Shown: positions 784 to 24,508, counted from the first letter of the stretch. The stretch is 24,508 nt of DNA from a bacterium (GCA_965233585.1 CBDDTI010000411.1:1-24508); one strand, 5' to 3'. Program-made: numbers and translations. The notes: generated by a model not told the origin, from the letters alone.

Positions 784-920
784 GAGAATCAGTGACCATA
801 AATTTACTGTCAGAAATTTGATTGTTCAGGGTGTTGGGCAGGATTTTTCTCGTGCAGTTATTTCCTGGTGCGATTGGTCTAGAAACCGTTTAAAAGTGAG
901 CGCCTCACCGCTTAAATTTC

Positions 921-958
921 TATAAAAGTCAGGATTTATATTTTCCATTCCGTCATTC
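921..958 (+). promoter_or_regulatory. TATA box and possible initiator for the rightward replication genes
   Basis: TATAAAAG at 921-928, CCATTC/TCATTC Inr-like motifs at 945-958, first ATG at 1017. Confidence 0.5.
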
Positions 959-1016
959 CATTTTCGTTCATTTACCAAGAAAAGTCTTCTACCCCAAGTC
1001 AATTCTCAAGGTAAAA

Positions 1017-1799
1017 ATGCCTGGTCTTAACAATTCTGAATCTCGTCAAGTAATTCATGACTCGCAAGGGTTAAGGGTTACAGTACGTATTGCTGATGAT
1101 TCAACATCAAACTCTAACAACAACAACAACAACACCGCCGATGATTCAACATCGGACCCTACAATCAATAATAATAACTCCGATGATTTGACATCGACCA
1201 TCAACTCTGATGATTTAACATCAGTCTCTCCAACTGTTGTACCGATTGGACGAGGTGAGAGGTTAGCGAGACCAAATAACGTCTCAAACCCCCTTTTTGC
1301 TGGACGCGGAGTTGGACGAGGTGGGTCTGTCCGCAACACCTCAAATATTTCGAATGTCGGGCGTGGTGTTGGTCGAGGTCAACCAATTCAAAGAAATCCT
1401 CAACCATCTACTTCTGCTCCAACGGCTGGGCGGGAGGTTGGAGGCGGTGCTGGCAGGGGTGGAAGATATTTTCACCCTTACCGTCGTCCAGCAACTCAAA
1501 CTTCGGCCTCTACCATAAACGGTTCTCGTTCAAGTTCCGTTATTTTTATAAACAGCGATGGGGAAGAATTTGAGGAGGAGGAGGATTTTGATGAGACGGA
1601 TTATGACTACCACTATTCTACTTGTGTCGAACATTTATTCAACAGAAGAAGAGTAATTTTCGATATTAATGAAAGATATGCTGAGTCTTTGATTCAACGT
1701 CAAATACGATCACTTGAGCGACAAAATCTTTGGCTTCGAAATGAATGCCAAAGATTAAACACTCAATTGCAACGATGTAGGGAGTTGTTGTCTTCTTAA
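1017..1799 (+). CDS. Disordered RG/RGG-rich protein with acidic patch and C-terminal leucine-zipper-like coiled coil
   Basis: 260-aa ORF with GRGVGRG repeats, RYFHPY (PY-NLS-like), EEFEEEEDFDE and a heptad pattern in IRSLERQNLWLRNECQRLNTQLQRCRELL. Confidence 0.7.
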   Translation: MPGLNNSESRQVIHDSQGLRVTVRIADDSTSNSNNNNNNTADDSTSDPTINNNNSDDLTSTINSDDLTSVSPTVVPIGRGERLARPNNVSNPLFAGRGVGRGGSVRNTSNISNVGRGVGRGQPIQRNPQPSTSAPTAGREVGGGAGRGGRYFHPYRRPATQTSASTINGSRSSSVIFINSDGEEFEEEEDFDETDYDYHYSTCVEHLFNRRRVIFDINERYAESLIQRQIRSLERQNLWLRNECQRLNTQLQRCRELLSS

Positions 1800-1884
1800 G
1801 ATTTTTGAGTTCATAATGTATATATTATAAAATGTAGTCTCAAATTAATGTTAAAATAAATTTTGATTTCAGAATTTTGTAAGA

Positions 1885-2604
1885 ATGCCGAAATCTTACG
1901 TGTGTCCCGAATGCCAAAAATCATTTGACAGAAAATCTTCTCGCGACAAACATCATTTATTCCGTCATCGCGAAACTACAAAATCTCGAGCTCGGACCCC
2001 ACTCAATCAGTCGTTTCAATGCCCATTTTGTAAGAACGAAGTAAGTTCTTTTAAATCAAGAAAAGATTTAGTCTCACACATTGACGCTTCTCATTTAGAA
2101 AATTTAAATTATTCATTGTACAAATCCGCACTTAACGGAAAAATCAAATTTTATCGAAAACACATTTTTTCAAAAGAAACACTTCAAGGATTTGTTGCAA
2201 ATAAAAAAAATAGACAAGAAATAGTTGACGTTATTTGTCACGAACTAAGTAAAACTTTTACGGTTAAAGTTGCCCTTATTTTGACAGCGGCGTATCAAAT
2301 TCCTGATTTGAATTCCGCTGCAGAGAAGAAGGACATTGAACTAGATACTACCAATATTGATGATACCTCTGATAAACCTTCTGATCAGTCGTCGCCTCAA
2401 ATATTGTCCAATGATCGAGATGTTTTTGCTCTAAGAACCAGCTACATTCAATTCACGTCTTTTGATTCATCCCGCTCGTTAAAAGGCAAAGTCCAAAAAT
2501 TATTACATAATTTAGTAAATAGAGAAGAAGATTTGTTAATGAGAGGTTCTGGATGGAGATTTGAATCTTTATCTTTTAGCGATATTCAAATTACTAGCAT
2601 TTGA
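1885..2604 (+). CDS. C2H2 zinc-finger protein with a putative terminal-protein domain (normally the pPolB N-terminus)
   Basis: Two C2H2 fingers (CPEC...H...H; CPFC...H...H). The C-terminal RGSGWRFESLSFSDIQI resembles the GSGW motif of Polinton pPolB N-terminal regions. AATAAA follows the stop. Confidence 0.7.
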   Translation: MPKSYVCPECQKSFDRKSSRDKHHLFRHRETTKSRARTPLNQSFQCPFCKNEVSSFKSRKDLVSHIDASHLENLNYSLYKSALNGKIKFYRKHIFSKETLQGFVANKKNRQEIVDVICHELSKTFTVKVALILTAAYQIPDLNSAAEKKDIELDTTNIDDTSDKPSDQSSPQILSNDRDVFALRTSYIQFTSFDSSRSLKGKVQKLLHNLVNREEDLLMRGSGWRFESLSFSDIQITSI

Positions 2605-2656: not shown

Positions 2657-5600
2657 ATGGATTTTATAGAAATTCCACGTGATTTAAAGAGATCTAATTG
2701 CTTGGAATGGAAAACTCGTTACGATAAATTCAATTTTCTTTATCTGTACATTAGACATCTTTTTCCTGAGGAAACGGTTTCCGTTGTTGATTTTCGTCAA
2801 ATGCCGATAAAGTATCTTAAAAAGTTTAATATAAGAGGTTTCAAATTCCCTCTTCAATTTTGTAATTTAAAAAAATTCTTAAATAGAAACTCCCATTTAC
2901 CAATTTCAATTTCAGTTTTTTATGAGAGTGAAGGTCAAGTTTCAAAGTTAGGTTTTTTTACTAACAAAAACAACAACAGAAACAAAAACATTTTAAATTT
3001 GTTAATGATAAAATATGATCCTGAAATCTCTCTTGAAAATGAATCTCCATTTTCTCGCCTTGCAAAACCAATTCAACGCAAGAAAAAATCTTCTTGTAAA
3101 AAGATTGTCAATTGTAGTTCTAATGTCAAATTGGGTTTTTCTTCCAAGTTTAAAAAGATCAAGGATTTAAATCAACAGCACCATTTCTTTAAAATTACCA
3201 AAATCCAAGGTTTTTTGAATAATCGGGCCGGACTGTTGTCGGGTAAAAAAGCAGCTCAACAGAAGCACATCTATTGTGAAAAATGTCTGCTTCATTTTCG
3301 ATCCAAATCTAAAAAAGAAAAACACGAAAACACTTGCTGTGATAAACAACGTGCTATCTACCCAAGTAAAAATTCCTCCATAAGTTTTACCAATCATAAA
3401 CATAAATTTCATGCTCCTGTTGTTGGATTTTGTGATTTTGAATGTGTACTTCAAAGAAACAAAGAACGATCTAAATGTCAACTCTGTTTAAAAACTGAGT
3501 GTTTGTGTGCTTTTCCCACCAGTGACGATATAAACGTGCATAGACCAGTGGGGTATAGCTTGCTTTTTGTGGATTCGAATGATGAGGTATTTTTTCAAGA
3601 AGAATATGTAGGAGAGGATGCAGCCAAACATTTTTTGGATCGAATGCATTTCTATGAAAAAGTTGTTGACGAAAGAAAACAAAAATTCAGACATATTGTT
3701 AAAAATCAATCTAGTCCGCAAGAATGGCAAATGTATCAAAAAGCAAAAGTTTGTCATATTTGTGGTGGTCAATTCAAAAAGTACTCTAGAAATTACAGAA
3801 AAGTTCTAGATCATGATCACGTGACAGGGAAAATAATGGGCGCAGCTCATTCACTGTGTAACTTGACGAGATCCGGCCCCTTTCACACACCAATTTTTTT
3901 CCACAACGCTCAAGGGTAAGAAGTCTTAATTGGGTTTATTTATTAAACTAACACAAATTATGTACGCGTTTCAGATACGATTTGCATTTAATCGTGGAAG
4001 AGTTAAATGTTTCCAAATTTAAGCAAAATGTAAAAGTCTTAGCAAAAAACAGTGAAAAGTTTCGCACTCTTACATTGGGCAAATTTAAAATTCAAGATTC
4101 GTTAGAGCACATTTCTGGCAGTCTAGATGCACTTGTTCAAGATTTGAATCAGACCTCAAATTTTACCTTTCCCATTTTACAACAAATGGAAAGATATAAA
4201 AAAATTCCTGTTCGTCAAAAATCAAAAGCTTTAAAACTTTTAAAAAGAAAAGGCGTTTTTTGTTACGAACATTTCCAATCTTTAGAAGAGATGAAGAAAA
4301 GTCGAAACCTTCCGTCCAAAGACTCTTTTTATTCTGAATTAAACGAAGAACACATTACGGAAGCGGATTATTCCCATGCTCAAGAAGTCTTTAAATTGTT
4401 CAAATGCAAGAATGTGGTGGATTACATGATGCTCTATTGTTCTTTAGACGTTGTTTTGCTGTGTGAAGCATTTCTTCAGTACAGGAAAATGGTTATGGAA
4501 CATTTTCAATTGGATCCTGTTTATTATCTAGGTAAACTTTAATCTTTACTGTTGGATGTATCGTAATACTAAATTTGTTCTACCTAAATTAGGAATTCCT
4601 GGCTTGAGTTTTGATGTCATGCTTATGTTCTTTCAAAATTCAGAACAAGCTAAATCAGATAATAAGCTCACATCCGAATCTGAAACCTCCAAACCCCTCG
4701 GATCATTAGATGTCTATTCCGATCCTGAAATGGAGCGTTTTTTTACAAAGGGTATCAGAGGTGGGCAAAGTTTTATCGCTCAGCGTTATGCCAAAGGGAA
4801 TAGCAATCCTAGAAAAAGCGGCGATCACTTGTTATACATTGATGGTAATTTTATACTGTATTATCTGATGAAATCATTTTTGTTATGATCCATACAATTT
4901 TTCAGCCAACAACTTATACGGGAGTATGGAAACTTTAAAATTACCAGTTTCTGATTTCCAATGGGTTTCAAAAACAGAATTTAAAAATTGGACTGCCGAA
5001 GATATTATCAACATTCCTTCGCAAGACGATACTGGATATGCGTTCGAAGTTGATTTGCATTATCCTTCTCATCTTCACCAGGTAAATCCGATCTTTGTTG
5101 TGATACGTTATTTATTGTTTTGACAAGTTACATGATATCATTTTCAGGCACACGATCAATTTCCGCTGGCTCCGTATACAGACACGGTTTCTTTTAAACA
5201 TCTATCTCCTTACAATCGCCGTTTACTGAAACATCACTGTCCTCGAGATTATAGGAACAAAAGATACCGGAGCAAGAAATTGTTGAGCACTTTTTATGAC
5301 CGAAAAAAGTACGTGGTGCATCTGGAAAACCTGCAGTACTACTTGAAAAAGGGCATGAAGTTGCTGAAGATAAGAAGAGTCATGAAGTTTCGACAAAAAG
5401 CTTTTTTGAAGGAGTTCATCGAAAAGGTCACAAAGCTGCGATCAAATGCTCGCAATGACTTTGAACTCCGGCTTTTTAAACTTTTTGCCAACTCTACTTT
5501 TGGAAAATTTATTGGTGAGTTTTGAGATAAGATAATTTAATGATGTTGAGATTGTAAAAGACGCAAAAGCGTAATTTGACGCAGTCCATTTTTCTGTAAA

Positions 5601-8566
5601 AAATGAATTTGTTAAATACTCAAACGAATTTGGGGTCATTTTTTGTATTTTTTCTTTAATTTTGAGGCACAAGTGCGTGGTGGTACCGGCGACAGTTGCG
5701 GCAGTACGTCCTGCCGGCACCAACCACGCACTTAGCCTCATCAAAATCGTCATCTTCACCAATATCGGCTTCGTTGGCGGGGCTGACGTCGGCGGGGATG
5801 ACGTCGGCGGGGCTGACATCGGTGGGGATGACGTTGGCGGGGATGACGTCGGTGGGGATGACGTCCGGACGGACCGGCGACAAAGTCGGCGACGGAGGCG
5901 GCGGCCGTCCTGATCATCATGATCAAGCCTCTGGCAAGCCGTCTAAGACGGCCACCGCCCCACATCAGTGGTGGACGCGGCGGTGTCTCGCTCAATGGCG
6001 GGTCCGGCAGCAGCTTGAACCTCTCCTCCTCCTCCTCTTCCGTCCATTTCGCCCTCAACACCTCGTATTTCCCCCTCCTCATCCTTCCTAACTTTACCTT
6101 GTCCATTTTCCTTTTCCTTCTCCTTCTCCTCTTCCTTCTCTAAATTTGTTTTGAATTTTCCCGCATGGTTTTGTCAATTTTAGAAAATGAATCTCCAAAC
6201 CTTCACATATTAATTAGCAAATTATCTCATAAATATTCATAATATTAAATCAATATTAAATTAAAAATTCGCAAAATGAATTAATCAAGTACGCAAACTT
6301 TTGAAAAATCAATTTTTATAAAATGATGTGTTTATTTTGTAATCAAAAAGAAAAAGAAAAATGATCAAATTTAAATTTTAATTTTTTTTTGTAACTTTTC
6401 GAGCTGTAGACGGAGACCACACTGATGGAAATGCCGTTACTTGACGCACTTCTGGTGTTGGTGAAGGTTCCACGTGAGTATAGGGTTGTGGTTTAGATTT
6501 TTGTGTTGATTGTGAAGACAAATCAAAAGACACGCGATGAGAGGTCTGCTTTCGTGACTCCGACTCCGGCCTTTGTGGGACGGATTTGTACGGGGTTCGT
6601 GATGGCCAAGCAGGTGCTACGGGTCGCTCGGAAGATGCCCATGATTCTCCACCCAAAGCCGCAGAAGATGACCATGCTCCTCCAGTTTTAGTAGATGACC
6701 ATGCCCCCTCAGTTTTAGCTGATGACCATGCTCCTCCGCCCACAGCCCCAGAAGATGTCCATGCTCCTCCGGTTTTAGTGGATGACCATGCTCCCCCGCC
6801 CCCAGCCCCGGTAGTAGATGCGCTCTTCCACGACTCCGACCCTGATTTTTGCGGGACGGATTTGTACGGGGTCCGTGATGGCCAAGCAGGTGCCACGGGA
6901 CGTTCGGAAGATGCCCATGATCCCCCACCCAAGGCCGCAGAAGATGACCATGCTCCCGCAGTTTTAGTAGATGACCATGCCCCCTCATTTTTAGCAGATG
7001 ACCATGCTCCTCCGCCCACAGCCCCAGAAGATGACCATGCTCCTCCGGTTTTAGTGGATGACCATGCTCCCCCACTCCCGGCTCCGACAGTAGATGCACT
7101 CTTCCATGACTCCCGCTCTGATTTTTGTGGGACGGACTTGTACGGGGTCCGTGATGGCCAAGCAGGTGCCACGGGACGTTCGGAAGATGACCATGATTCC
7201 CCACCCAAGGCCGCAGAAGATGACCATGCTCCTCCGGTTTTAGTGGATGACCATGCTCCTCCGCCCCCGACCCCGGCAGTAGATGCGCTCTTCCACGACT
7301 CCGACCCTGATTTTTGTGGGACGGACTTGTACGGGGTCCGTGATGGCCAAGCAGGTGCCACGGGACGCTCGGAAGATGTCCATGATCCTCCACCCGCAGC
7401 CCCAGAAGATGACCATGCTCCCTCAGTTTTTGTAGATGACCATGCTCCCCCAGCCGCAGCCCCGGTAGAGCTACTGCCAGAAGTCGGACTTGAAGTTGCC
7501 TCCTCCTTGGCTGATTCTATTACTTTTAACCAAAAAGCTTTGCTCTTTTCCTGATCTTTTTTATCCATTTTGACTTAGTGTTTATTTTGTTGGAATTTTT
7601 GATGTCCGTTTATGTCGGGCTTTAAAAAAGGAATGATTTCAAATTGAAGTAAATTATAGTACATTGCTAATTACAGAGGAAAGTGAAATGTGATATGGGA
7701 CGGCTAGTTAGCTGAGGTGATTGCGCACATAATCAATTTTCTTTATTAAATAAATCTTATTTTGCATTTCAGAAAATGTTCGAAATTACTCTGAAGTGGT
7801 CCTTTGTGGTGATGAACAGAGCTTAAGGAAAGCCAGTCTTGGTCAACACATCAACAGTTTTCAAATCATCAATGAAAACTTGGTGGCTGTCAACAAGAAG
7901 CCGGCAATAATAGAGCTCAGGAAGCCTTTAGCTGTTGGATTTTCTATTTTGGAATTGTCCAAGTTGTTTATGTACAGATCGTATTATGACACGATTCAAC
8001 AACATTTTGGCGAAAAAAATGTGTCTTTATGTTTCTCAGACACGGATTCTTTTCTTTTAAAAGTAAGATGCAACAACTTGGAAAGGGAAATGAAAAAATT
8101 AGAGCACATATTTGATTTTTCAAAGTACCCCAAACAACATCCTCTTTTCGATGACAGTAGAGCCAATCAGCTTTTTTATTTTAAAGACGAACTAAAAGGC
8201 AGAGCTGCTATTACTCACTTTATAGGCTTACGTCCAAAATGTTATTCTATGAAAATTACTGATTTTTCAGACAAAAACAAAACAGAAGAAAAGAAAATTT
8301 GCAAAGGTTTAAAAAAATCTAGCATAAAAAAGCAATTAACCTATAACGATTACAAAAAATGTCTAAAACGTGCTGTTCTAATTTACAAATCTTTCAAAAA
8401 CTTAAGATCAAAGAATCATAAAATTCGGACATGTTTTCAAAGAAAGATTGCGTTATCAGCAATGGATTCCAAAAGACACATTTTGAATTGCGGATATCAC
8501 ACTTTATCACTAGGAAATTGTCTTATTGTCAACAACAAATCATCTAAATGCCCTATTTGTAAATAA
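2657..8566 (+). CDS. polB: Protein-primed family B DNA polymerase, 6 exons: 2657-3915, 3975-4531, 4593-4844, 4906-5081, 5148-5514, 7773-8566 (3405 nt, 1134 aa)
   Basis: Splicing rebuilds ExoII HNAQG/YDLHL, DPVYYLG/IPGLSFD, motif A YIDA/NNLYG, YPSHLHQ/AHDQFPLAP and motif B KLFANSTFGKFIE/NVR. Also present: ExoI DFE, ExoIII YCSLDV, motif C SDTDS, LRPKCY, KGL, and an endonuclease VII-like insert CHIC...DHDH...AHSLCN. Confidence 0.93.
3916..3974 (+). other. pPolB intron 1 (59 nt)
   Basis: GTAAG...CTAAC branch-like...TTTCAG; removal gives GG+A TAC GAT (G-Y-D) in frame. Confidence 0.93.
4532..4592 (+). other. pPolB intron 2 (61 nt)
   Basis: GTAAAC...ATTAG; removal gives YYLG-IPGLSF in frame. Confidence 0.88.
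4845..4905 (+). other. pPolB intron 3 (61 nt)
   Basis: GTAATT...TTTTCAG; removal restores catalytic motif A, D-A-N-N-L-Y-G. Confidence 0.93.
5082..5147 (+). other. pPolB intron 4 (66 nt)
   Basis: CAG|GTAAAT...TTTTCAG|GCA; removal restores LHQAHDQFPLAP. Confidence 0.92.
5756..6106 (-). CDS. Arg-rich, protamine/core-like ORF nested in intron 5 (frame uncertain, possibly a pseudogene)
   Basis: 116-aa ORF with RHPHR/RQPR repeats and MWGG|G. An in-frame upstream ATG at 6166 is cut off by TAG at 6142-6140, followed by RRKRRRRRKRK. TATAAAA at 6320-6314. Other frames are also partly open. Confidence 0.35.
   Translation of the reverse strand: MDKVKLGRMRRGKYEVLRAKWTEEEEEERFKLLPDPPLSETPPRPPLMWGGGRLRRLARGLIMMIRTAAASVADFVAGPSGRHPHRRHPRQRHPHRCQPRRRHPRRRQPRQRSRYW
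5772..5861. repeat. Six copies of a 15-bp GC-rich tandem repeat (CGTCGGCGGGGATGA consensus)
   Basis: Directly visible, with 0-2 substitutions per unit. Confidence 0.9.
6378..7568 (-). CDS. 396-aa Ser/Gly/Trp-rich repeat protein nested antisense in intron 5
   Basis: GTCAAA-ATG start, unique N- and C-termini, many GGAWSS units and four copies of ERPVAPAWPSRTPYKSVPQ. AATAAA on the minus strand at 6336-6331 follows the stop. Confidence 0.7.
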   Translation of the reverse strand: MDKKDQEKSKAFWLKVIESAKEEATSSPTSGSSSTGAAAGGAWSSTKTEGAWSSSGAAGGGSWTSSERPVAPAWPSRTPYKSVPQKSGSESWKSASTAGVGGGGAWSSTKTGGAWSSSAALGGESWSSSERPVAPAWPSRTPYKSVPQKSERESWKSASTVGAGSGGAWSSTKTGGAWSSSGAVGGGAWSSAKNEGAWSSTKTAGAWSSSAALGGGSWASSERPVAPAWPSRTPYKSVPQKSGSESWKSASTTGAGGGGAWSSTKTGGAWTSSGAVGGGAWSSAKTEGAWSSTKTGGAWSSSAALGGESWASSERPVAPAWPSRTPYKSVPQRPESESRKQTSHRVSFDLSSQSTQKSKPQPYTHVEPSPTPEVRQVTAFPSVWSPSTARKVTKKN

Positions 8567-8629
8567 ATAAAACATATTGTTACTTTTATTTAAGAAAAAA
8601 TTTTTAAATATTTTTCAAAAACTAGCAAA

Positions 8630-9324
8630 ATGGATGGTTTTGATTTAAGGTTCAGTATTCCTTCCAACATGTTAATTGTTGGCCCAACATCGAGTGGAAA
8701 AACAACGTGGCTTAAACATTTAGTGGTTGGTAGGCATGAATATTTTGCAACTCCGCCAGAAACAATGTTGTTGTTCTACAAAGAACCACAAAAAGCTTAT
8801 GAATACATGGAAGATGATATGAATCGAGACAAACGTTCAAACTCTCGTTTTCCAACATTTCGTAAATTTAAAAGTATTCCAAATTCGATTGAAGAACTAA
8901 AAGATATTTTGGAATCATATCCAAGAAAAATGCCCAAATTAGTTGTTTTTGATGATTATTTAGACGATGTTGGACAAATATTAAAACATTTTTTTACGGT
9001 TTTGACTCATCACTACAATTGTTTCACCGTTTTTCTGTGTCAAAATTTATTTGATAAAAAAGGTGATTTGCGGACATTAAGCATAAACACTCAGTACATG
9101 GTTCTTTTTAACAATCCTCGGGACAGAAGTGCGGTTGCGCATTTGGCTAAACAAATTTTCCCGGACGAGTCGGAATTTTAAATAAAGCATATAGGGAAGC
9201 TGTTAACGGTCGAAGTCATGGATATCTCCTTCTAGATTTCCATCAACAACAAGACGATAAAGTCAGAATTCGAAGCAACATTTTTCCGTACGAGGGTCTG
9301 ATGAAAGCTTACGTTACCGTTTAA
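8630..9324 (+). CDS. A32/FtsK-HerA family DNA packaging ATPase with a -1 frameshift near 9178
   Basis: Walker A GPTSSGKTT, Walker B VVFDD, HHYN..VFLCQN and RTLSIN. The conserved C-terminus (KAYREA...GYLLLD...RIRSNIFP) continues in the -1 frame to TAA at 9322-9324. Confidence 0.88.
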
Positions 9325-9372
9325 AGGATTTTCATATCTATTTAAGAAAAATAAAAAATTGCAACTGTCAAA

Positions 9373-11710: not shown

Positions 11711-13060
11711 TTAATTGGTTCCTTTTATGACTTGTTGAAATTGATCTATTTTAATACCGGAGTTAAAAATAGATAAGGCCAGAACGTATATTGGATGGGG
11801 AGTGATTTGGGAAAAAGCCAACTCTAAATCTAAATTTCCATAATTTTCTGGATGAGTGTGGTACGAATTACATTGATCTGGTGTCAAGTCGGCCGCCAGA
11901 AAAAATCTTCCATTTATAAAAGCATCATACGTCAAGCCAATGGACTGATTGCCGTGCGAAATGCCTATACTGTCGTATAAATGTCGATACAAATCAACAA
12001 CGTCCCCCTCCTCAATATTAGGTTGAAAAGGTTTGGGAAATACGCATTGCCCGTTCTTTTTTAAATTAAACGAGGAAAGATTAAAGTGTTGAAAATTAAA
12101 AGGATTTTTGTCGGGAGCATGCGACATAGCCTGATTGTGAACCATCACAAAAAACACTTGTTTGGGTAATGTTCCATTAGCAATATTAGCGATGTTAAAA
12201 GACGACACGCCTTGAGGAATAACGTAATGTCTTAAACGTGTAGAGCTAAAAGGCAGGTAGCACGGTTCTTTTAAAAGTTTGTTTTTGAAACTTTCTCGTA
12301 TTATCAACGTAGGCAACACTTTTCTCATATGCAATTTGACATCTTTTAACACAATTTTGAAAGGTTTTGCTGCTGCAGGATCTTGAAGCAAACCAAATGT
12401 TTCAGCCGATCTAACCAATTTTATCTTGATATCCACATTTGGTGGTAAGAATCGATCAGTGTCAAACAGATCAACAGCTATACGCGAGTTAAAAAATACT
12501 TTTTTCCCGTTTAAAATCAAATTCTTTCTTTTTGTCAAAGAATTAGAGGAAACTTCTTCGGTAATTTTGGTGGTGGTAACTTCGTCTATAGTTTCGGGAT
12601 AATATCCTTCAGCAGCCAGATAAGTGTCTTTTACGTCAATATTGTAACTTAAATATGATTGTAAAAACATTCTCCAGGGGTAGGTGACCGCCGAACTTAA
12701 ATCAGCTACTTGAACACCGTTCAAATACACTTCTACTTGACTGAATAAACAAGCAGCAAAATGATTTACCAACGCGGTTTTACTTGCCTCCGTGACAAAG
12801 CCGCCGTCATCATTTGTCACTACAAAATGCCCACTGAGTCTGGTTTGACTCAGTATAAAAGAACACTCGTTGTCGCGAGGAACAAGAAATTCTACCGGAC
12901 CGGTGTTGGTGATAGAAGCCACGCTATTGTAAATAACGTGAGCCCCTTCCAATAGACCCGTTTCCACTTCTAAGGGTGCGTGAAGCGCTAAACCACTTTC
13001 TGTGCCATCGTTTTGTTCCACGGCCAATCCAGCAATTCCGCTTTTATCAGGCAAGCCCAT
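11711..13060 (-). CDS. Major capsid protein (double jelly-roll, hexon-like), 449 aa from ATG 13060
   Basis: Polinton MCP-like motifs GPVEF, LFSQVEVYLNG, FLPPNVDIKIKL, LPKQVF, NPFNFQHF, DLTPD and GNLDLEL. Confidence 0.88.
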   Translation of the reverse strand: MGLPDKSGIAGLAVEQNDGTESGLALHAPLEVETGLLEGAHVIYNSVASITNTGPVEFLVPRDNECSFILSQTRLSGHFVVTNDDGGFVTEASKTALVNHFAACLFSQVEVYLNGVQVADLSSAVTYPWRMFLQSYLSYNIDVKDTYLAAEGYYPETIDEVTTTKITEEVSSNSLTKRKNLILNGKKVFFNSRIAVDLFDTDRFLPPNVDIKIKLVRSAETFGLLQDPAAAKPFKIVLKDVKLHMRKVLPTLIIRESFKNKLLKEPCYLPFSSTRLRHYVIPQGVSSFNIANIANGTLPKQVFFVMVHNQAMSHAPDKNPFNFQHFNLSSFNLKKNGQCVFPKPFQPNIEEGDVVDLYRHLYDSIGISHGNQSIGLTYDAFINGRFFLAADLTPDQCNSYHTHPENYGNLDLELAFSQITPHPIYVLALSIFNSGIKIDQFQQVIKGTN

Positions 13061-13067
13061 ATCAAAG

Positions 13068-13610
13068 ATGGAAGTGATGGTCAGCAATGTTAAAATCAGT
13101 TGCAAAATTCGTCTCATCGACAGTGACAAAATTTCTTTTAATACCGATAATGTACTAAAACATTATAATAATTTTACTGTTGTTAAAAAAAAATATTCTT
13201 TTATTGTGTTTACTAAAACAAAGCAAAATCGAAATTTCCACGTAAATATTACTAAAATCCCTTCCACAGAGCATATACCAAAAGCATTAGACGAATTAAA
13301 ACTTGTTATAAGTAGTAAATTTATTACTGAAAAGTTTAAAATAGAAAACATGACTTGTTTGTGTCATATGTCATCAAAAATCAATTTATTAACATTTTAC
13401 AACAATTTGAAATTAAATGTAGATTTTGAAATTATCCAAAAGAGATACGACTCTGAGAAATTTCCTGGAATGTTTTTAACATTAAAAAAGTGTTCTGCTT
13501 TAATATTTTCGTCTGGAAAAATAGTAATAATTGGAGCTTCCTGCGAAAAAGACGCTACACAAGGAATAAAAATTATTTCTGAATTGCTGAAAAAATATAA
13601 AACTGAATAA
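13068..13610 (+). CDS. TBP: TATA-binding protein homolog (180 aa, core only)
   Basis: Second repeat FKIENMT...YDSEKFPGMF...ALIFSSGKIVIIGA closely matches the TBP signature. First repeat VSNVK...YNNF...FIVF...VNITK is diverged. Confidence 0.9.
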   Translation: MEVMVSNVKISCKIRLIDSDKISFNTDNVLKHYNNFTVVKKKYSFIVFTKTKQNRNFHVNITKIPSTEHIPKALDELKLVISSKFITEKFKIENMTCLCHMSSKINLLTFYNNLKLNVDFEIIQKRYDSEKFPGMFLTLKKCSALIFSSGKIVIIGASCEKDATQGIKIISELLKKYKTE

Positions 13611-13716
13611 ATTCAATATAATAAAAGATTACGTCGGATTATTTGTAAAATCAGTTAAATTTTGAACTTCGTACAATAAACAATGAAATTATGTTCAAAA
13701 ATTAGATTGGATTAAA

Positions 13717-14436
13717 ATGTGCATTCATCAATATATAATAGAAGACACCAGACAAGGAGACGTAGTGTGCACCGAGTGTGGTTTAGTTATTGATAAAATA
13801 TATTGTGATCCAAATTTAGAAACAAAATGGGAAAAAATAAAAAATTTAAATGAAGAATTTGAACAAAACAGCGAACATTTAAAGAAGGAAAAAAATATTT
13901 TAAAAAATTTATGTAATAAATTACATTTAAATAATGATGTTACAAACACTATTTTTAACTTGTGGTCAGAAATAGTAGCGTGGCATTATCAAAAAAATGG
14001 AAAAATTAAAATTAATCCAAAAGGCTTAATTGCTATGGCATTGTATCAAAGTTTAATAGAGGAAAAAATTCCCCGCCCAATAAGTCACTTGTGTCAGGAA
14101 ATTGGTATTAGCCCAAAAACGGTATGGCGATGGATAAAATTATACAGACAAGATTCGACCAACACAATTAAAACAGAAAATTCTATAAAAGCAAAAGATA
14201 TGGCAGAATATTTTTTACAGCCTCTACAGTTAAATTATCAAGAGATGACAACTATAAAAGAAAAACTAAATAAAAATGAAAATAGTTCTTTTGCTCCTAG
14301 GACTTTATTAGCAGCATGTGCTTATGCCTTTTTAAAAGAAACAAGAGCACTATATCCGAGCGTCAAAAATACAGCTCGTATTTTAGGCGTCAGTGTTATG
14401 TCTTTATACAGATGTCTTAAAAGTCTAGAGCAATAA
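13717..14436 (+). CDS. TFIIB: Transcription initiation factor TFIIB homolog (239 aa)
   Basis: N-terminal Zn ribbon CIH...EDTRQGDVVCTECGLVI, then two cyclin-like repeats (LCNKLHL...AMALY...IPRPISHL; APRTLLAACAY...TARILGVS). Confidence 0.9.
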   Translation: MCIHQYIIEDTRQGDVVCTECGLVIDKIYCDPNLETKWEKIKNLNEEFEQNSEHLKKEKNILKNLCNKLHLNNDVTNTIFNLWSEIVAWHYQKNGKIKINPKGLIAMALYQSLIEEKIPRPISHLCQEIGISPKTVWRWIKLYRQDSTNTIKTENSIKAKDMAEYFLQPLQLNYQEMTTIKEKLNKNENSSFAPRTLLAACAYAFLKETRALYPSVKNTARILGVSVMSLYRCLKSLEQ

Positions 14437-14846: not shown

Positions 14847-14852
14847 AAAGAA

Positions 14853-15935
14853 ATGACAACAAAAGAGATTTTTTTAAAAGAATATGCAAGACCAGGCTCA
14901 CCAATAGCTTTTGCATCTCCTGCGTTGATTTATTATTATTATGGAAAAAAAATTCCTTTAACGACAATTGAAGAATGGTTAAAGGGAACTGATTCTTACA
15001 CACTTCATAAACAACCAAAATTACCTAAACCTAGAAATCCAACATTTGCTTATCATAAGAGATATCAATTTCAAATTGATCTTATAGATTTAGGAAATTT
15101 GATCGAAGAAAATGACGGGAATAGATACCTTCTAACAGCTATTGATATTTTTACACGATTCGCGTTTGTAGAACCCTTAAAAAATAAAACAGCAAAAACT
15201 TTTATGGAGGGATTTGAGTCTATTATGAAAAGAGCAAAAAAGTTTCCTCGTAGAATTTTAGCTGATAAAGGTGCAGAAATAAAGAATAAATTGTTTCAAG
15301 CCTACTGCAAAAACAATAACATTCTTCTATTACACAGCAACAATTTTGTGCACGCCCCTTTTGTGGAAAGATTTAACCGAACTTTAAAAAATCTGATGTT
15401 TAAATACATGACTCACGAAAATACAGATAGGTACATCGATGCATTACCTTTTCTTGTTCATACCTACAACCATCGTAAACATCGTATGATTGGAATGTCA
15501 CCCGCTGAAGCCGAGCTCCCCGGTCGGACTTATTTTATTAGAAGAAAACAGGAATTGCATTATTCAAAGTTTAAGAGAAAAAGACCAAAATACAAAATTG
15601 GTCAAACCGTGCGCATTAGCATAATGAAGGGAAAATTTGACAGAGGTTTTACACAACAATTTAAGGAAGAAATTTTTAAAATAAAATCAATTTTTACTCG
15701 TTTGCCTAAACCTACTTATGAATTGGAAACTTTAGAACAGGATGAAACTCTGGAAGGAAATTTTTATGAGAGTGAACTTACTCCCGTGAATGAGCCAGAA
15801 TTATTTATGATTGAAAAAATTTTACGAACAAAAAAAGATAAAAAAACAGGTGAAAAAATGGTTTTGGTGAAATGGAAAGGGTATAAAAACCCCAGTTGGA
15901 CATATGAGAAAGATGTAGTTGATGTGTCACAATAA
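14853..15935 (+). CDS. int: Retroviral-like (rve) DDE integrase with C-terminal chromodomain
   Basis: YTLHK, QIDLID (D), IDIFTRFA, ADKGAE (D), VERFNRTLK (E), YNHRKHRMIGMSP and chromodomain LVKWKGY...SW. Confidence 0.95.
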   Translation: MTTKEIFLKEYARPGSPIAFASPALIYYYYGKKIPLTTIEEWLKGTDSYTLHKQPKLPKPRNPTFAYHKRYQFQIDLIDLGNLIEENDGNRYLLTAIDIFTRFAFVEPLKNKTAKTFMEGFESIMKRAKKFPRRILADKGAEIKNKLFQAYCKNNNILLLHSNNFVHAPFVERFNRTLKNLMFKYMTHENTDRYIDALPFLVHTYNHRKHRMIGMSPAEAELPGRTYFIRRKQELHYSKFKRKRPKYKIGQTVRISIMKGKFDRGFTQQFKEEIFKIKSIFTRLPKPTYELETLEQDETLEGNFYESELTPVNEPELFMIEKILRTKKDKKTGEKMVLVKWKGYKNPSWTYEKDVVDVSQ

Positions 15936-18490: not shown

Positions 18491-19085
18491 TCACAATTTA
18501 ATGGTACTTGAGCAAATCCAAATAAATAAAAATTTTGGAGTTAAACAAGTGCCAAAAAAGTATGAAGATTAGATGTTAACATTTTCGGAGTGAAGTAGTT
18601 GCTCACAATTTTGTAACTTTTATGTGGATTCAAATATTAAAATTAAAGATTTAAATCGCGCACAAAAGTTAAAAAAGTGTAAGACGTTGATCTTGATGAT
18701 GAAATGTGATGAAGGTTGACTGTGATTTAACGATGTTTATGCTAAATAATTGCTCACAATTTAATTACTCTTGTGGCGAGTGTCATATATGATAAAACAT
18801 TATGAGACCCGTACAAGAGTAAAAAAAGCATGAGATGATAAGCAGTGTCCGGATTTTAGAGTTGAGTAATAGCTCACAATTTTAATGCCAAATGTGACAG
18901 GTCAAATTTAATTTAAAAATTTAGACCTACACACATTTGTCAAAAAAGCATGAGAAATAAAGATGGTCTTCGGAGTTATCTTGAGTGTAGTAAAAACTCA
19001 CAATTTTAAAATAAATGTGAGAGATAAATTATAATTAAAAAATTTAACCCCTCACATTTATCAAAAAACTATGAGAAAATAGATG
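18491..19085. repeat. Five degenerate 110-150 bp repeats
   Basis: TCACAATTT at 18491, 18603, 18754, 18874 and 18998, each followed by an AAAAAAG(C/T)ATGA-like block. Confidence 0.65.
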
Positions 19086-19381
19086 TCTTGATAATTGAAA
19101 CGGTTGAAAACGACTGTGAGTTGAATTTTTAACAGGATTGGATGAAAACTTTGATACGCGCGATCAAATTTTTGTCTTATCAGAAACAACTTTGGAAATT
19201 CTTCTTTTTAAAATTTAGAGTTTGAAAAATTACATTTGAGCGGGTTTGGAGCAAAAAGGACGGAATTTTTAAACATTTTTCATTCTTAGAACCTTTCTTT
19301 GCGCTTTTAAATCGAGAACAATTTGACAATGGAGAAAAATAGATGTTGCAACAAGCCTGTAACCGACTTGTTTTCGTCTGC

Positions 19382-19669
19382 AATCGGCTTGCAACAGGCT
19401 CGATTGAGCCTGTAATCGGCTTGCAACAGGCTCGATTGAGCCTGTAATCGGCTTGCAACAGGCTCGATTGAGCCTGTAATCGGCTTGCAACAGGCTCGAT
19501 TGAGCCTGTAATCGGCTTGCAACAGGCTCGATTGAGCCTGTAATCGGCTTGCAACAGGCTCGATTGAGCCTGTAATCGGCTTGCAACAGGCTCGATTGAG
19601 CCTGTAATCGGCTTGCAACAGGCTCGATTGAGCCTGTAATCGGCTTGCAACAGGCTCGATTGAGCCTGT
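19382..19669. repeat. Nine perfect copies of a 32-bp unit (AATCGGCTTGCAACAGGCTCGATTGAGCCTGT) with an internal hairpin
   Basis: Period 32. Each unit holds ACAGGCTC-GATT-GAGCCTGT. An inverted copy of about 60 bp from 19361-19420 lies at 19703-19762. Confidence 0.95.
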
Positions 19670-19926: not shown

Positions 19927-19978
19927 AGAAATGTGCCTACATCAAGCTCGAAAGAGCCTGATGTAGGTACATTTCTCT
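19927..19978. other. Terminal hairpin (23-bp stem, GAAA loop) and putative right terminus
   Basis: AGAAATGTGCCTACATCAAGCTC-GAAA-GAGCCTGATGTAGGTACATTTCT pairs at 21 of 23 positions (plus one G.T and one mismatch), followed by terminal CT. Confidence 0.75.
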
Positions 19979-22139
19979 ATAACAACCTTTTCCTTTCTTT
20001 CTGCAGGAGCTGGAATCGTGTGGGCCGGTCTTTTCTGACGGGGGTGCCTCGGGTGCTTCAATGGCTGGCCGGGATGCTGCTATAAGCTTGCACCTCTGAA
20101 GGGTCGGAGCAGTCGTAGGCTGTAAGATGGTAACGGGCTTCCACGGTGCCATACCCATTCCGGAGGGTGAAACGGTCGGCGGAGAGAACGGAGAGGAGTC
20201 CTATCAGGGATCCTAGAGTGGTGCTCCGATGGATGCGGCTGGTGGAGGAGGTGATGACTAGTCCCAGGAGGAGAACACAGAGGTTGGCTCGGAGACCCAT
20301 GTCGGCCCGGTAGGATGGTATAAGTGTAGTCGTTGTAGAATCCGGAGCGGGCAGCAGTGGGGTACTTGGGAACGGCGACTCGGGTAGGATCGTGACGGTA
20401 ACAATCGCCCAGGGCGAGGCTGGAGTGTGGTCTGATCCTTGCGGGGTCCTCAGCACCCGTTCTTGTGTCTCCCAACTTGATTTCAATCGGCAAAACAGAG
20501 TCGTTCCTTTCCACCACGAGAGGTCAGTCACTGTGAGATCTCGGTGAGGAGAGAACAGACGAATCGATTTGTAGAAGAGAGAACTTACAAGGTCGTTTTG
20601 TTCGGATGTTACAGCGACAACAAGGTTCAAGTCACGACAATTGGGCCAATGAGACATAAAGGTGGCAACACAATTCCGATCGTGGCGAGCATGCCACAGC
20701 CAGGGTCCACGGGGAAACCACAAGATCCCTATCTCGTCACATCTGGTTCTGCCTCTTCTCTCTCCTAATCTTGGGGCGCCTAAGGGCATCACTGCTCTCC
20801 TCCAGGCGTCTCGTTCTGAGCATCGGACCTCGGGCCTGGAGTGGAGATCGATGAGGATGGACTCCTCACACTCTCTTTTCCACTCTGCTGTACAGGATTG
20901 ATTTACCCTTCTAATGGGGATCACTCTCTTCCCTCCTGTGTGGCAGAGAGCGGCCACGGTCACTTCGTCGTATGTGGCGGTGTCCACATCGTCCCATGGT
21001 TCATGCCCGGCGCCGGCAGAATCCTCATCTTCCCCAATAGCAGCCACCAGCTGTCGTTGGCCAGAGCTCTCGCCCACGAGGGGCAGGACGTTGGTGGCCT
21101 CGGCGAACCTCACTTCCCTCGGACCATTCACGGTCGCCCGAGATGATGGATACCGCGCGGGTAACCCTTCACTAAATGGAGCAGCACAAGTCCACACAAT
21201 TAACAAGCCCACGAGGCAAGGGTGGTTCGTTCCCGGAGCATTGAGACGAAACTCACACTTGGGGCAACAGTACACAAGGCGGAATTGGTTCCTCTCCGGA
21301 GTATTCGGACCAGGATCACAGTGGAGGTAACAGTACATTGAAATCACTCTCATTTCATTATCATCTACTGCCAGATTGCATGAAGCCGCGGCTGTATTCT
21401 GGATATGCCCACTTGTCAAGTGGGAGCACAAGATTATAAGTACAACACTGGGACACAGAATTGAAGTCACAAACGTAAGGGTCTCTTGGGTGATTTGATC
21501 TTTGGCACTTGGCGAAGGAATAGGGACTCCGGAGCCGCTGGAGGGTGCATCTTTCATCTCCCTGGGTAGGCGGGTTCCTTGTATCGATTCCGTGGATTCG
21601 AAGAGTCCTCCCCGTCCACAGGGGTGATCTGCGTGGGGATCGTTGTCCGCCCGGAGCCAAGGGGTGTGAGCGCGACATCCTCCCCGGAGAATCACCAACG
21701 GAAGGCCCTCTCTCTCTGTAGAGCTCCGCAGACCGTGGGCTCTGTAGTTTTGAGGCACTAGCGGCATTGGACTCCAGGCTGTGTCGAGGTGTCGTGAGTG
21801 GGAACCGATGGTGTAACAGTCCTGTGTGGTAGGCGGAGCAAGGAGTTGAGGACTACCTCCGGCTTTCAGAGGAGAATTTTGAACTAGCGGGGCCGCTCCC
21901 CCTAGAGGCACCTTCGCATCGATAATCAGGGGATCACGCCCGCAGGCAGCCCAGGCACCCACCCTTTGACAGGGCATTCGGAGAAGGGGAGTAACTCGAG
22001 CTCTTACATGCGCTTCTTCCCATGTCCTCCGGGACGTCCGACGAGGGCAGAATCCGGGGAGGCCGGCAGCGAGCGGCCGCGGGCAGGGGCACAATGGTGA
22101 CCTGCGTACAGCCCCGCGGGGTGGAGGAATGGGGTCCAT
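19979..22139 (-). pseudogene. Degraded env/viral glycoprotein-like reading frame of a GC-rich element, truncated at the Polinton junction
   Basis: Hydrophobic segments precede LTAYDCSDP...H*STRG...FQLLQKERKR, with an in-frame TGA where a Cys is expected. This resembles the YDC...C...QLLQ N-terminus of chuvirus-like/retroelement glycoproteins. The upstream part of the ORF is not recognisable. Confidence 0.45.
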
Positions 22140-24508
22140 TCCTTAGCGTTACCCCACAGCACCGGCCTTTTCTCGGGATGAAGACACCATCCCAGACGCG
22201 CCGGGGTTTTGAGCATCAGCCTTCCTAGGTCCTCCATTCTTCTTGAGAGGGCTAGGCCGTGCCTCTCTCGTAAGGGGAGGCGGTCATTGACGGTCGGCTG
22301 GGTTTTCAGGGCGGCAATTGCCGTTGGTAAATCATGCTCCGGGGGACGGGTCCGGTGGGGAAAAGGACAGTAGGGATGGACCCCCCTATCTACTGTCCTG
22401 ACTGAAAATCCAGCCCGTCGCTCCTGTGGCTGGGTCCGGCCCGGAGGTGGGGCGGCATGTCACTAGCGGACGACCCCGGGGACAAGGGTTGTGGAGGTGT
22501 GCGAACAAGGTTCTGCAAGTCCTCAGCACTGGGTTGGGGTCGACCTCGGAGGATGGAGCGCACTCTGGAGTAGAGGGTTTCTCTCCGGACTTCTTCTGAG
22601 GTGGAGGGCAGGGCAATGTCCTCCCATTGTCCGCGAGAGGTCTCCATCCGGACCACGCTGCCGGCATTCCACGGGGCAAGCGGACGAGCTATTGGGGTCA
22701 TGATTCCTCATTTAGCGCGGGGTTTCAGGAGACTCCTCCTTCTCCCGCTAGGTCCGCGTAGGTGGCGGGGTGCGCGGAGAAGTCCTTCCTCCCGCATACG
22801 GATCCTGATCAAGTCGTCTAGTAATTGGAACCGCTCCTCATAAGCGTCCAGCATTTCGGAGCAACTCCTTGGTCCGGCAAGAGTGATGTCCCGGACGGCA
22901 TCATGGGCGGAGTCCCGCATGCACGCGTTGGCGTACCGTCGGGCGGTGCGGTCAGGCCACCGTTCATGCTCGTGAAGGGTGTTTTATCCTTGGGGTGGCG
23001 CCTGTGGGATGGTTGTTTGACCTCTCTGTGAATATCCTCCAATATGGTGACCTGTTAATAAACCTCCATATTGACCTCCCTTTAAACCCCCCCATAAGGT
23101 GAATCCAATTTGTTCTTTGTTATTTTATTCAGCCCATGTTGATGGTAGTAATAAGGCATATACAAGAACTACATGACTTCACTATATGAGTACACACACA
23201 AGAATGACAAGTACACAATAAAACTAAAGGTCTTCACATGATGACTATACTTAAGAGAGTGATGGTAACTGTTGCTTTGATCTTTAATGTTGATTCTTTT
23301 CTAGGTGGAGAGGTGTGGCTTGGTTCTTTGTTCCCTGGTGTGTGTTGTTGATGACCTTGCAGTTGGCTCTAACCCATTTGCTTGGCTGGTCCAATCTAAT
23401 TGCTTGGCTGGTTCAATCTAACAGTTCTTTTACCTCTCAAGTTAACTGTATCCAGGGGAATGAACCAAAGTGTTGTCTGGCTTGTACATAACAAAGGAAC
23501 ACAAGGAACACAGGCAGGTCATCTGCCTCTTGACATATTTTAATAATCATTGATAAATATACATAATGGCAAGAGCCGGATATGAAGCATCACCCCCCTG
23601 CTAGAAAGCAGTAGAGATGAAAAGGGGAGGTTTTTTTATAAGCTGGAAAAATGATTGGGGACACTGCTTATCGATGTTGACTGGTGATTGGTTTTTGTAA
23701 TTAGTGCCGATGTGACTGCTTGGTGGGTTGGGATGGCTGACATGATGTTGTTGGCCTACAATGGTCGAAGGGCTGAGCCACCTTTTTTTGGGATAGGGCT
23801 TTCCTGAAAATTGAATAATAAATAAGTGGGGGAACACAACTTTGAATACCATGGTCAATGATTAAACAATATACACAAGTTCTAATTTGAAAAAGGTACA
23901 AATATGATCATAGATTGAAACTTATCTTTGTGGATGGATTGATGGTGTTCACATCTCTATGATTGACAGATAGTTGTTGAGCTCATGTGGCAGGGTCTTT
24001 GAGCAGGTTGCATCTCAATTGACAGAAATGAAGCAGCTGATTTGGATGAAAAAGTGCAGCGAAGTTGAATCTGGTTTAGACAGCTCCTTTGAATGAAGTG
24101 ACTCTCCCTCTAATTGGTGGTTGCTTGTGTCTTTGGATGGAAATGAAGTGAATGTTATGGGTGCTGAAGATGTTGCAGCATCAAGATGGAATTGGGTTTA
24201 GATTGCCTCTTTGCCTGTAGTAATCTTTCCTCTAATTGATGAATGTTGGTGTCTTTGGATGAAGGCAAGAAACCAGTGTTTTCAGTTGGTCAGCGGTGAT
24301 TATTTTTTGAAGCTTTGTGTGGACGCTGAAAACAGGTGGAGAGATGGCAGGAGGAGAGCTTTGAAGTAAAACATGTTTGCTTTGGTTGTGTGAACCGTTG
24401 GTTGAGAAAAAACGCGGGCGCGATTGTTTTTTTTTGTGTTGAATATGGGGAGTTGAAGTTAATCCAGGTGATGTTGCTTCTTCACAAAAAACGTGGACGT
24501 TGATGCAG

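Follow-up and report, generated by a model that had tools for sequence, protein, structure and literature searches.

Why does a mobile element carry two genes on the opposite strand of an intron in its essential DNA polymerase gene? The question is raised by contig C411, a stretch of 24,508 nt that we analyzed at its full length and call the window. The initial annotation, made from the sequence alone, had described at 5515..7772 an antisense gene cassette nested in a 2.26-kb polymerase intron. Here we ask what the element is, whether the cassette belongs to it, whether its genes are real, and what the layout could mean for the element and its host.

A Maverick/Polinton copy in a bin filed as bacterial

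The window comes from a 12-Mb assembly of 747 contigs (G000) that is filed as a bacterial genome bin and was scored 92.5% complete as a prokaryote genome. The assembly clearly holds eukaryotic contigs besides bacterial ones; they number in the hundreds, with several Maverick families among them. A sequence search of 40 bacterial relatives of the bin gave no match to exon 6 of the polymerase gene. We identify the window as a Maverick/Polinton copy carried by a contig of eukaryotic origin; the host is a eukaryote, probably an animal.

The copy occupies bases 1 to about 19981, the window including its right end only. A blastn search with the window matched 45 contigs, the closest at 95 to 99% identity, and sister copies that have both ends are 23 to 24 kb long. 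Terminal inverted repeats of 476 to 614 nt (80 to 96% identity) are present in all three sister contigs having both ends, and none of these three end pairs has a target site duplication of 4 to 8 bp (6 bp in vertebrates), a count to be read with the caution that repeated 23-kb elements may be collapsed or chimeric in the assembly. Unusually for an element of the protein-primed kind, its ends read TG..CA. The terminal repeat has a near-perfect palindrome at its tip (19927-19978), with a folding energy of -20.1 kcal/mol as single-stranded DNA (z -9.2).

Besides the polymerase, the element encodes a retroviral-type integrase with a chromodomain (14847..15935, plus strand; Pfam rve, E 2.6e-9, above cut-off; Chromo, E 3.5e-5), a putative packaging ATPase (Pox_A32, E 4.9e-4) and a putative adenain-like protease (Peptidase_C5, E 0.0064), the last two matches lying below the curated cut-off. 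The major capsid protein (11711..13060, minus strand) has no Pfam match and was recognized as a double jelly-roll protein by a structure model (pLDDT 71.6), which in Foldseek matches the capsid proteins of PBCV-1, an iridovirus, mavirus and Sputnik (E 3e-15 to 1e-12). The short-intron sister families described below (L016-L020; C98, C93, C58, C426 and C593) contain two tandem, diverged capsid paralogues, about 53% and 39% identical to the single capsid gene of the window. The element also encodes a TBP domain protein (PF00352, E 1.4e-16; 12984-13610, plus strand), which adjoins a gene for a TFIIB-like protein (zinc ribbon, E 3e-8; 13687-14436, plus strand); our literature search found no paper on TBP or TFIIB in Polintons. 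The ATPase frame (8594-9330, plus strand) is broken near 9160 in C411 and unbroken in contigs from four sequencing runs, which suggests long-read indel errors in the assembly.

A polymerase gene with five introns

The gene for the protein-primed family B DNA polymerase (pPolB) spans 2657..8566 (plus strand) and has six exons, which were defined from Pfam matches, exon boundaries and phase arithmetic. Exon 1 carries an Endonuclease_7 domain (Pfam), and exon 5 matches PF03175 (E 5.3e-6, above cut-off). All five introns are GT-AG; four of them are short (3916-3974, 4532-4592, 4845-4905 and 5082-5147, plus strand; 59, 61, 61 and 66 nt), and with the intron 1 donor at 3916 the exon lengths sum to a multiple of three. 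Intron 5 (5515..7772, plus strand), the one that bears the cargo, is 2258 nt long, runs from GT to AG and is in phase 1. It lies between exon 5 (5148..5514, plus strand), which ends just after motif B, and exon 6 (7773..8566, plus strand), which contains motif C (SDTDS), and so separates these two catalytic motifs.

Among 11 copies of the window's family, pN/pS is 0.03 in exon 5 and 0.10 in exon 6; hence, selection acts on the enzyme both before and after the 2.26-kb intron. Exon 6 has 129 database relatives at E <= 0.001, and in 26 of the first 80 of these the junction of exons 5 and 6 is continuous (62-72% identity), which fixes the spliced product of the gene. Searches with exon 6 gave one distant locus in metagenomes and no match in the viral contig database. 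Exon 6 has no ATG within its first ~70 codons. The contigs from the four sequencing runs cover the introns and contain no splice joint; the runs behave like DNA and are therefore silent on expression. A loose end in one of them (run X6, at 1346) resembles what we take to be a template-switch adapter.

The intron 5 site in sister elements

A search with exons 5 and 6 yielded 51 paired copies that could be compared at the intron 5 site. No intron is present in 12 of them (the distant ones), 14 have an intron of 55-74 nt, and the remaining 25 have one of 941-2322 nt. Short and long introns interrupt the same codon in the same phase, and the splice ends are conserved in all 25 long introns. The initial annotation had pointed to sister elements as the place to look for a short intron or different cargo, and the site does show both, as well as the intronless state. 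In a quick tree of 70 exon-6 rows (21 chosen contigs and database proteins, after omission of three short or stopped rows), a single clade (SH-aLRT 97) unites the 11 long-intron rows with two database proteins of unknown intron size. This clade is nested in a group with a support of 83, which also holds short-intron families and four junction-continuous proteins. On the simplest reading, a small intron would have been gained, lost in a few lineages and enlarged once, the direction from short to long being only moderately supported (83).

All 26 strong matches of a profile made from the gene B tail and all 14 of a gene A tail profile are at the intron 5 position, three of them on copies cut by a contig end. 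The profile search found no free-standing copy of either gene in the 12-Mb bin, which contains only a small part of the host genome, and gene B had no match in genome contig or viral contig databases. The repeat listing of the window contains no terminal inverted repeat inside intron 5, no transposase family in Pfam matches the intron 5 ORFs, and no Rfam family lies over the intron, in agreement with the first reading of the sequence, which had seen neither terminal repeats nor a transposase. The data support a cassette that is part of the element, as opposed to a separate transposon, an introner or a one-copy host insertion; the last had been named at the outset as the finding that would speak against a nested cassette, and it is largely contradicted.

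The AT-rich spacers described at the outset were confirmed, with a GC content of 0.34-0.47 in windows over the spacers versus 0.52-0.60 over the nested genes. The spacers of intron 5 are less variable (0.078-0.106 per nt) than the genes (0.139 and 0.264), and low GC with fewer CpG sites may account for this lower variation.

The load of the site differs between families. The 941-nt intron of C288 contains a 96-aa Pro-rich ORF (L007:1118-1405, minus strand) behind an upstream region of the gene A type, together with a remnant of the gene B tail and a duplicated 3' non-coding motif. We considered this ORF as a repeat-less gene A and rejected it (BLASTP E 1.9, no profile match). The database protein P0131 is a single ORF in which the N terminus of gene A, with WG repeats, is joined to the helix and tail of gene B. 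This fusion and the unrelated ORF in the gene A slot of C288 indicate that the load of the intron site changes.

Gene A encodes a Trp-containing repeat protein

Gene A (6378-7568, minus strand) is supported by its ORF, its repeats, a profile and selection. It is the 396-aa minus-strand ORF noted in the initial annotation, and the poly(A) signal assigned to it there would be the AATAAA 42 nt after the stop codon (6331..6336, minus strand). The protein consists of a short Trp-containing N-terminal segment, Gly/Ser/Ala/Thr-rich repeats (encoded by 276- and 189-nt units) and a conserved C-terminal block of 28 aa; G, S, A and T make up 57% of it, and it has 27 Trp residues. No known family or fold matches protein A, and neither gene has a match in the ESM Atlas or a Pfam family. 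Seven database homologues were found, all of them family members.

Among copies of the window's family, pN/pS of gene A is 0.32 (p 4.5e-13), p values here being too small because repeat homogenization makes sites non-independent. Transitions give 0.28 and transversions 0.73 (p 0.2, not significant). The four non-mirror frames have pN/pS values of 0.94-1.65, and no frame other than the minus frame and its mirror has a synonymous excess; hence, the ORFs exceed what chance would produce. The mirror frame has the signal because it shares third positions with the gene A frame. A Pfam match to STb_secrete on the mirror frame was dismissed as low-complexity noise. Between the window's family and the C224 family, the gene A tail has 10 synonymous and 3 non-synonymous codon differences. 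The tail is present in 13 of the 25 long introns, and the 11 introns of 1.0-1.35 kb have no gene A. Its absence from these introns and the unrelated ORF in the 941-nt one mean that neither gene A nor its repeats are essential.

The Trp residues are regularly spaced. In the window, 18 of the 26 gaps between them measure 9-12 residues, and this spacing was found in all five natural stretches examined, despite differing repeat units, a regularity that tandem repetition partly explains. Diverged relatives of gene A with other repeat units keep a Trp period of 11-12 and use WG; three of them have 9-13 WG/GW dipeptides, versus none in the window's gene A. W-motifs (WG/S/T or G/S/TW) include 22 of the 27 Trp residues in the window's protein, compared with 18.4 in composition shuffles (p 0.11). 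Of 78 non-synonymous changes, 1 falls on a Trp codon versus 7.2 expected (p 0.005, with homogenized repeats). Tape-measure proteins have a hydrophobic helical make-up, which was the basis of a comparison with protein A; it is absent from A, and this candidate was rejected despite the 11-residue Trp period.

The conserved C-terminal block contains T-A-R-K, a motif noticed after the fact, with a chance rate of 4e-4 in a 28-aa block; P0144 lacks it. We take the motif to resemble the histone H3 lysine-9 region, so that the block might be regarded as a weak lead towards an H3 mimic; a comparable viral claim is reportedly disputed (PMC10833455). That viral histone H3 mimics exist is stated in an excerpt of PMC10208167.

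Gene B encodes a small protein with a Cys/His tail

Downstream of gene A on the minus strand, the initial annotation had seen a second GC-rich ORF region. The region is present, and in fact it is one gene of about 150 aa (gene B, 5656..6106, minus strand; ATG at 6106, stop at 5656-5658), supported by a profile, selection and a structure model; in the window, a single frameshift near 5870 splits it into two overlapping ORFs. Most sister copies have gene B as one ORF of ~150-170 aa (C96, C579, C705 and C228 are examples with a single frame), only some being frameshifted like the window's copy, and the break is not shared by contigs from three of the four sequencing runs. An assembly error is plausible since the window's ATPase gene is also broken in a way that the runs do not share. 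An upstream ATG at ~6166 was rejected as the start, as its frame relative to gene B varies among copies.

The protein has a basic and acidic N terminus, an amphipathic helix, a spacer encoded by a 15-nt repeat (5772-5865) and a C-terminal Cys/His beta-hairpin. In 24 of the 25 long introns an ORF terminates with the C-terminal motif, the 25th holding a remnant only, and the three families that carry this tail have largely unalignable intron DNA. The gene B profile found 17 database representatives, of which 16 are family members and one (P0137) was rejected as low-complexity noise. The database relatives share the basic and acidic N terminus, the amphipathic helix, a variable spacer and the Cys/His tail. 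Many members also have a Tyr-x-x-hydrophobic motif beside an acidic run, which we presume to be a sorting motif. A protease site that would release the helix was rejected as a feature of gene B; it is seen only in the window's family and is not conserved.

In the window's family, pN/pS of gene B is 0.46 (p 4.8e-5); transitions alone give 0.50 (p 0.001), and transversions alone give no signal (1.57, p 0.86). The tail (last 80 codons) has a pN/pS of 0.20 in 11 copies of the 1.0-1.35-kb family, and between families it shows 8 synonymous versus 4 non-synonymous codon differences. Net length changes are multiples of three in 7 of 10 copies. The structure model has a mean pLDDT of 54; the tail forms a short helix and a beta-hairpin at pLDDT 82-90, and the rest is mostly disordered. 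The hairpin is a probable metal-binding structure. Fold searches with this low-confidence model returned nothing at Z >= 2 and nothing at E < 0.2, and papillomavirus E7 rows that recurred weakly were not significant.

Candidate promoters

A non-coding block upstream of gene B (6150..6230, minus strand) is conserved in three families. It contains an initiator-like TCATT (A at 6188), which in the 1.0-1.35-kb family is preceded by a TATA-like box ~28 nt upstream. The upstream region of gene A (7570..7740, minus strand) has blocks in common with the C224 and C288 families and overlaps the branch-point and acceptor region of intron 5. From their position and conservation, we infer that the upstream blocks of both genes may act as promoters. 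The initial annotation had the second ORF region preceded by TATAAAA. The motif is present (6314..6320, minus strand), beside the poly(A) signal of gene A, but since it lies ~130 nt upstream of the block conserved across the three sister families, it probably belongs to AT-rich sequence at the 3' end of gene A and is not the TATA box of gene B.

What does the nested cassette do?

We propose that, in one lineage of Mavericks with introns, a ~60-nt spliceosomal intron in the essential polymerase gene has become a site for cargo. We give this reading, which covers the architecture and the presence of accessory genes and not a named target, a probability of about 0.78. The host spliceosome would very probably remove 5515-7772 from the polymerase pre-mRNA and join motif B to motif C. 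The two accessory genes would be transcribed from the opposite strand, with a separate core promoter of Pol II type and a separate poly(A) signal for each, and the antisense orientation would keep the poly(A) signals of the cargo from shortening the polymerase transcript. The intron would be the sole place inside the essential gene where cargo costs no coding sequence. Judged by their codon substitutions, both nested proteins are shown to be maintained by purifying selection. Splicing, antisense transcription and a function of the cargo are what we infer, with host modulation as the most likely function.

The targets of the cargo are a more speculative matter. By analogy, protein A might be a disordered multivalent Trp-motif decoy that binds or titrates small-RNA silencing factors of the host (the Trp pockets of Argonaute, or CCR4-NOT), which is our best guess within host modulation although one of low probability. 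It draws on the description of W-motifs as Trp in an S/T/G-rich context, namely WG/S/T or G/S/TW, with additive action (PMC5314787, in part) and on a plant virus, whose P1 protein (SPMMV) uses WG/GW motifs to block Argonaute (PMC2904775, in part). Like GW182/TNRC6 and SPMMV P1, gene A encodes many Trp residues in a G/S/T-rich low-complexity chain, with WG in its diverged relatives. However, it has no homology to GW182; a Pfam search gave no UBA, PAM2 or RRM match at E 0.05, and A is not a GW182 member. Also against the decoy, the window's copy lacks WG/GW and has no more motifs than its composition predicts, and one family does without A. No Piwi-domain gene was found in the contigs of the assembly, and we found no Maverick-encoded silencing suppressor in the literature. 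Gene B would encode a small adaptor with the amphipathic helix and the probable metal-binding hairpin. An extended version, in which the intron holds an anti-silencing module, appears unlikely: A would sequester Argonaute/Piwi or CCR4-NOT by means of Trp hooks in an array able to expand, the T-A-R-K block could mimic the H3 lysine-9 region, and the TBP and TFIIB encoded by the element might read the antisense promoters.

We rate a scaffold for condensates or virions roughly equal in likelihood to the Trp-motif decoy. With the same architecture, A would be a structural or compartment protein, either an internal component of the virion or a low-complexity scaffold whose aromatic stickers hold replication or assembly condensates together, and B a membrane or egress helper, much as UL16 and UL17 are virion proteins. 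Sticker-spacer phase separation favors regularly spaced aromatics in a Gly/Ser chain, which suits the Trp pattern of A; moreover, the capsid gene of the element is a true double jelly-roll one, and B combines its helix with the Tyr-x-x-hydrophobic motif beside an acidic run. We nevertheless consider this role doubtful: sister families whose capsid genes are intact have no gene A or neither gene, the protease-type cleavage site ahead of the B helix is confined to the window's family, and A and B evolve much faster than the polymerase exons. Could the cassette instead be mainly regulatory? Antisense transcription, which the initial annotation had suggested could damp polymerase expression, would then collide with the polymerase transcript or slow its splicing, as a latency or early-late switch. 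The overlap of the putative gene A promoter region with the acceptor end of the intron (in the 1.0-1.35-kb family it is the putative gene B promoter that overlaps) and the low variability of the spacers would suit such a switch, but the latter may have its cause in base composition, and families with 55-74-nt introns persist in many copies with no cassette. Interference does not require selection on A and B at the protein level; this selection means that the proteins themselves matter, so that interference cannot be the whole purpose. We regard a mainly regulatory cassette as improbable.

Two further alternatives question the architecture itself. The segment might not be spliced out, the polymerase being dead here or made as two separate pieces. 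The contigs of the four runs contain no splice joint, though these runs look like DNA, and a plus-strand AATAAA lies at 7749, just before the acceptor. Against this, the 25 long introns, which match the short ones in site and phase, keep their splice ends, selection on both exons is strong among copies that are 95-99% identical, and exon 6 lacks an early ATG, which makes an unspliced segment very unlikely. We see hardly any room for a dispersed host repeat or transposon, recently inserted, whose ORFs would be chance products of GC-rich tandem repeats or in which the mirror frame (6541-7554, plus strand) would be the real ORF. Such tandem repeats do make up most of ORF A, the mirror frame is open for 337 codons with the same synonymous excess as the gene A frame, and only a small part of the host genome is in the assembly. 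Yet the gene B tail recurs in 24 of 25 long introns over three diverged families, the strong profile matches of B (26) and A (14) are confined to the intron 5 position, and the mirror frame has no ATG and leaves the conserved C-terminal block of A outside it. The reading of intron 5 as a cargo site with two selected accessory genes is the one we retain.

Comparison with known systems

The element shares with Mavericks/Polintons (polintoviruses, adintovirus-like elements) the pPolB, rve integrase, double jelly-roll capsid, terminal inverted repeats, length of about 23-24 kb and, putatively, the packaging ATPase and adenain-like protease. It differs in its five spliceosomal pPolB introns, one of them gene-bearing, its TBP and TFIIB-like genes and its TG..CA ends. 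Intact vertebrate Mavericks have intronless core genes and end motifs of (AG)3 or (AGT)2, according to an excerpt of PMC8097293; the five pPolB introns and the TG..CA ends depart from this description. In protist Polinton-like viruses, introns are introners or group I introns (10.1101/2025.03.18.643946 and PMC12220804, both in part), that is, host intron-generating transposons or self-splicing introns, and the available portions of these sources describe no antisense protein genes in a polymerase intron. The nematode Polinton paper (10.1101/2023.08.22.554363) mentions no such layout in the portion available.

The closest architectural likeness is the herpesvirus UL15 gene, as the initial annotation rightly pointed out: there, a long intron with opposite-strand genes divides an essential enzyme into two parts, and its load is lineage-specific (PMC3079670, in part). 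There is no homology between the two loci: no family matches A or B, and B has no significant viral fold match. The enzyme is a terminase there versus a polymerase here, where the cargo is orphan and fast-evolving and, unlike at the UL15 locus, sister elements still show the empty and intronless states. The E2B polymerase/terminal protein unit of adenoviruses, a related virus group, is a looser parallel. Adenovirus late genes lie antisense within E2B introns, which are mostly in leaders, whereas the intron described here splits the catalytic core. That the E2 region encodes the polymerase and that both strands are transcribed is stated in an excerpt of PMC7851563.

Our search, which mostly covered literature outside subscription journals, turned up no report of antisense genes nested in the polymerase intron of a Maverick, and the layout is apparently undescribed. 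Because Mavericks are usually annotated as intron-free, ORF-based surveys would call the polymerase of this lineage broken and miss the cargo. One assembly shows three states of a single site: no intron, a tiny intron, and an intron that bears genes and varies in its load. Such a natural series for the origin of a UL15-like nested layout in a DNA virus is rare. It also provides two selected orphan proteins and a route to asking whether Mavericks counter host small-RNA silencing.

Other features of the window

Upstream of the polymerase gene, a low-complexity ORF and a C2H2 zinc-finger ORF occupy 900-2604 (plus strand). An acceptor-like TTTCAG immediately precedes the ATG of the zinc-finger ORF, and further splicing may connect the genes in this region. 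The element has sub-terminal tandem arrays at 477-782 (107-nt unit), 18821-19089 (123 nt) and 19378-19669 (32 nt); the word ACTCA(A/C)A is common to the first two and also occurs near the 5' end of intron 5. Adjoining the element, the minus strand of 20058-23000 contains GC-rich ORFs, one of 694 aa with no Pfam match, which we take to resemble a fragment of an LTR element with an envelope-like gene.
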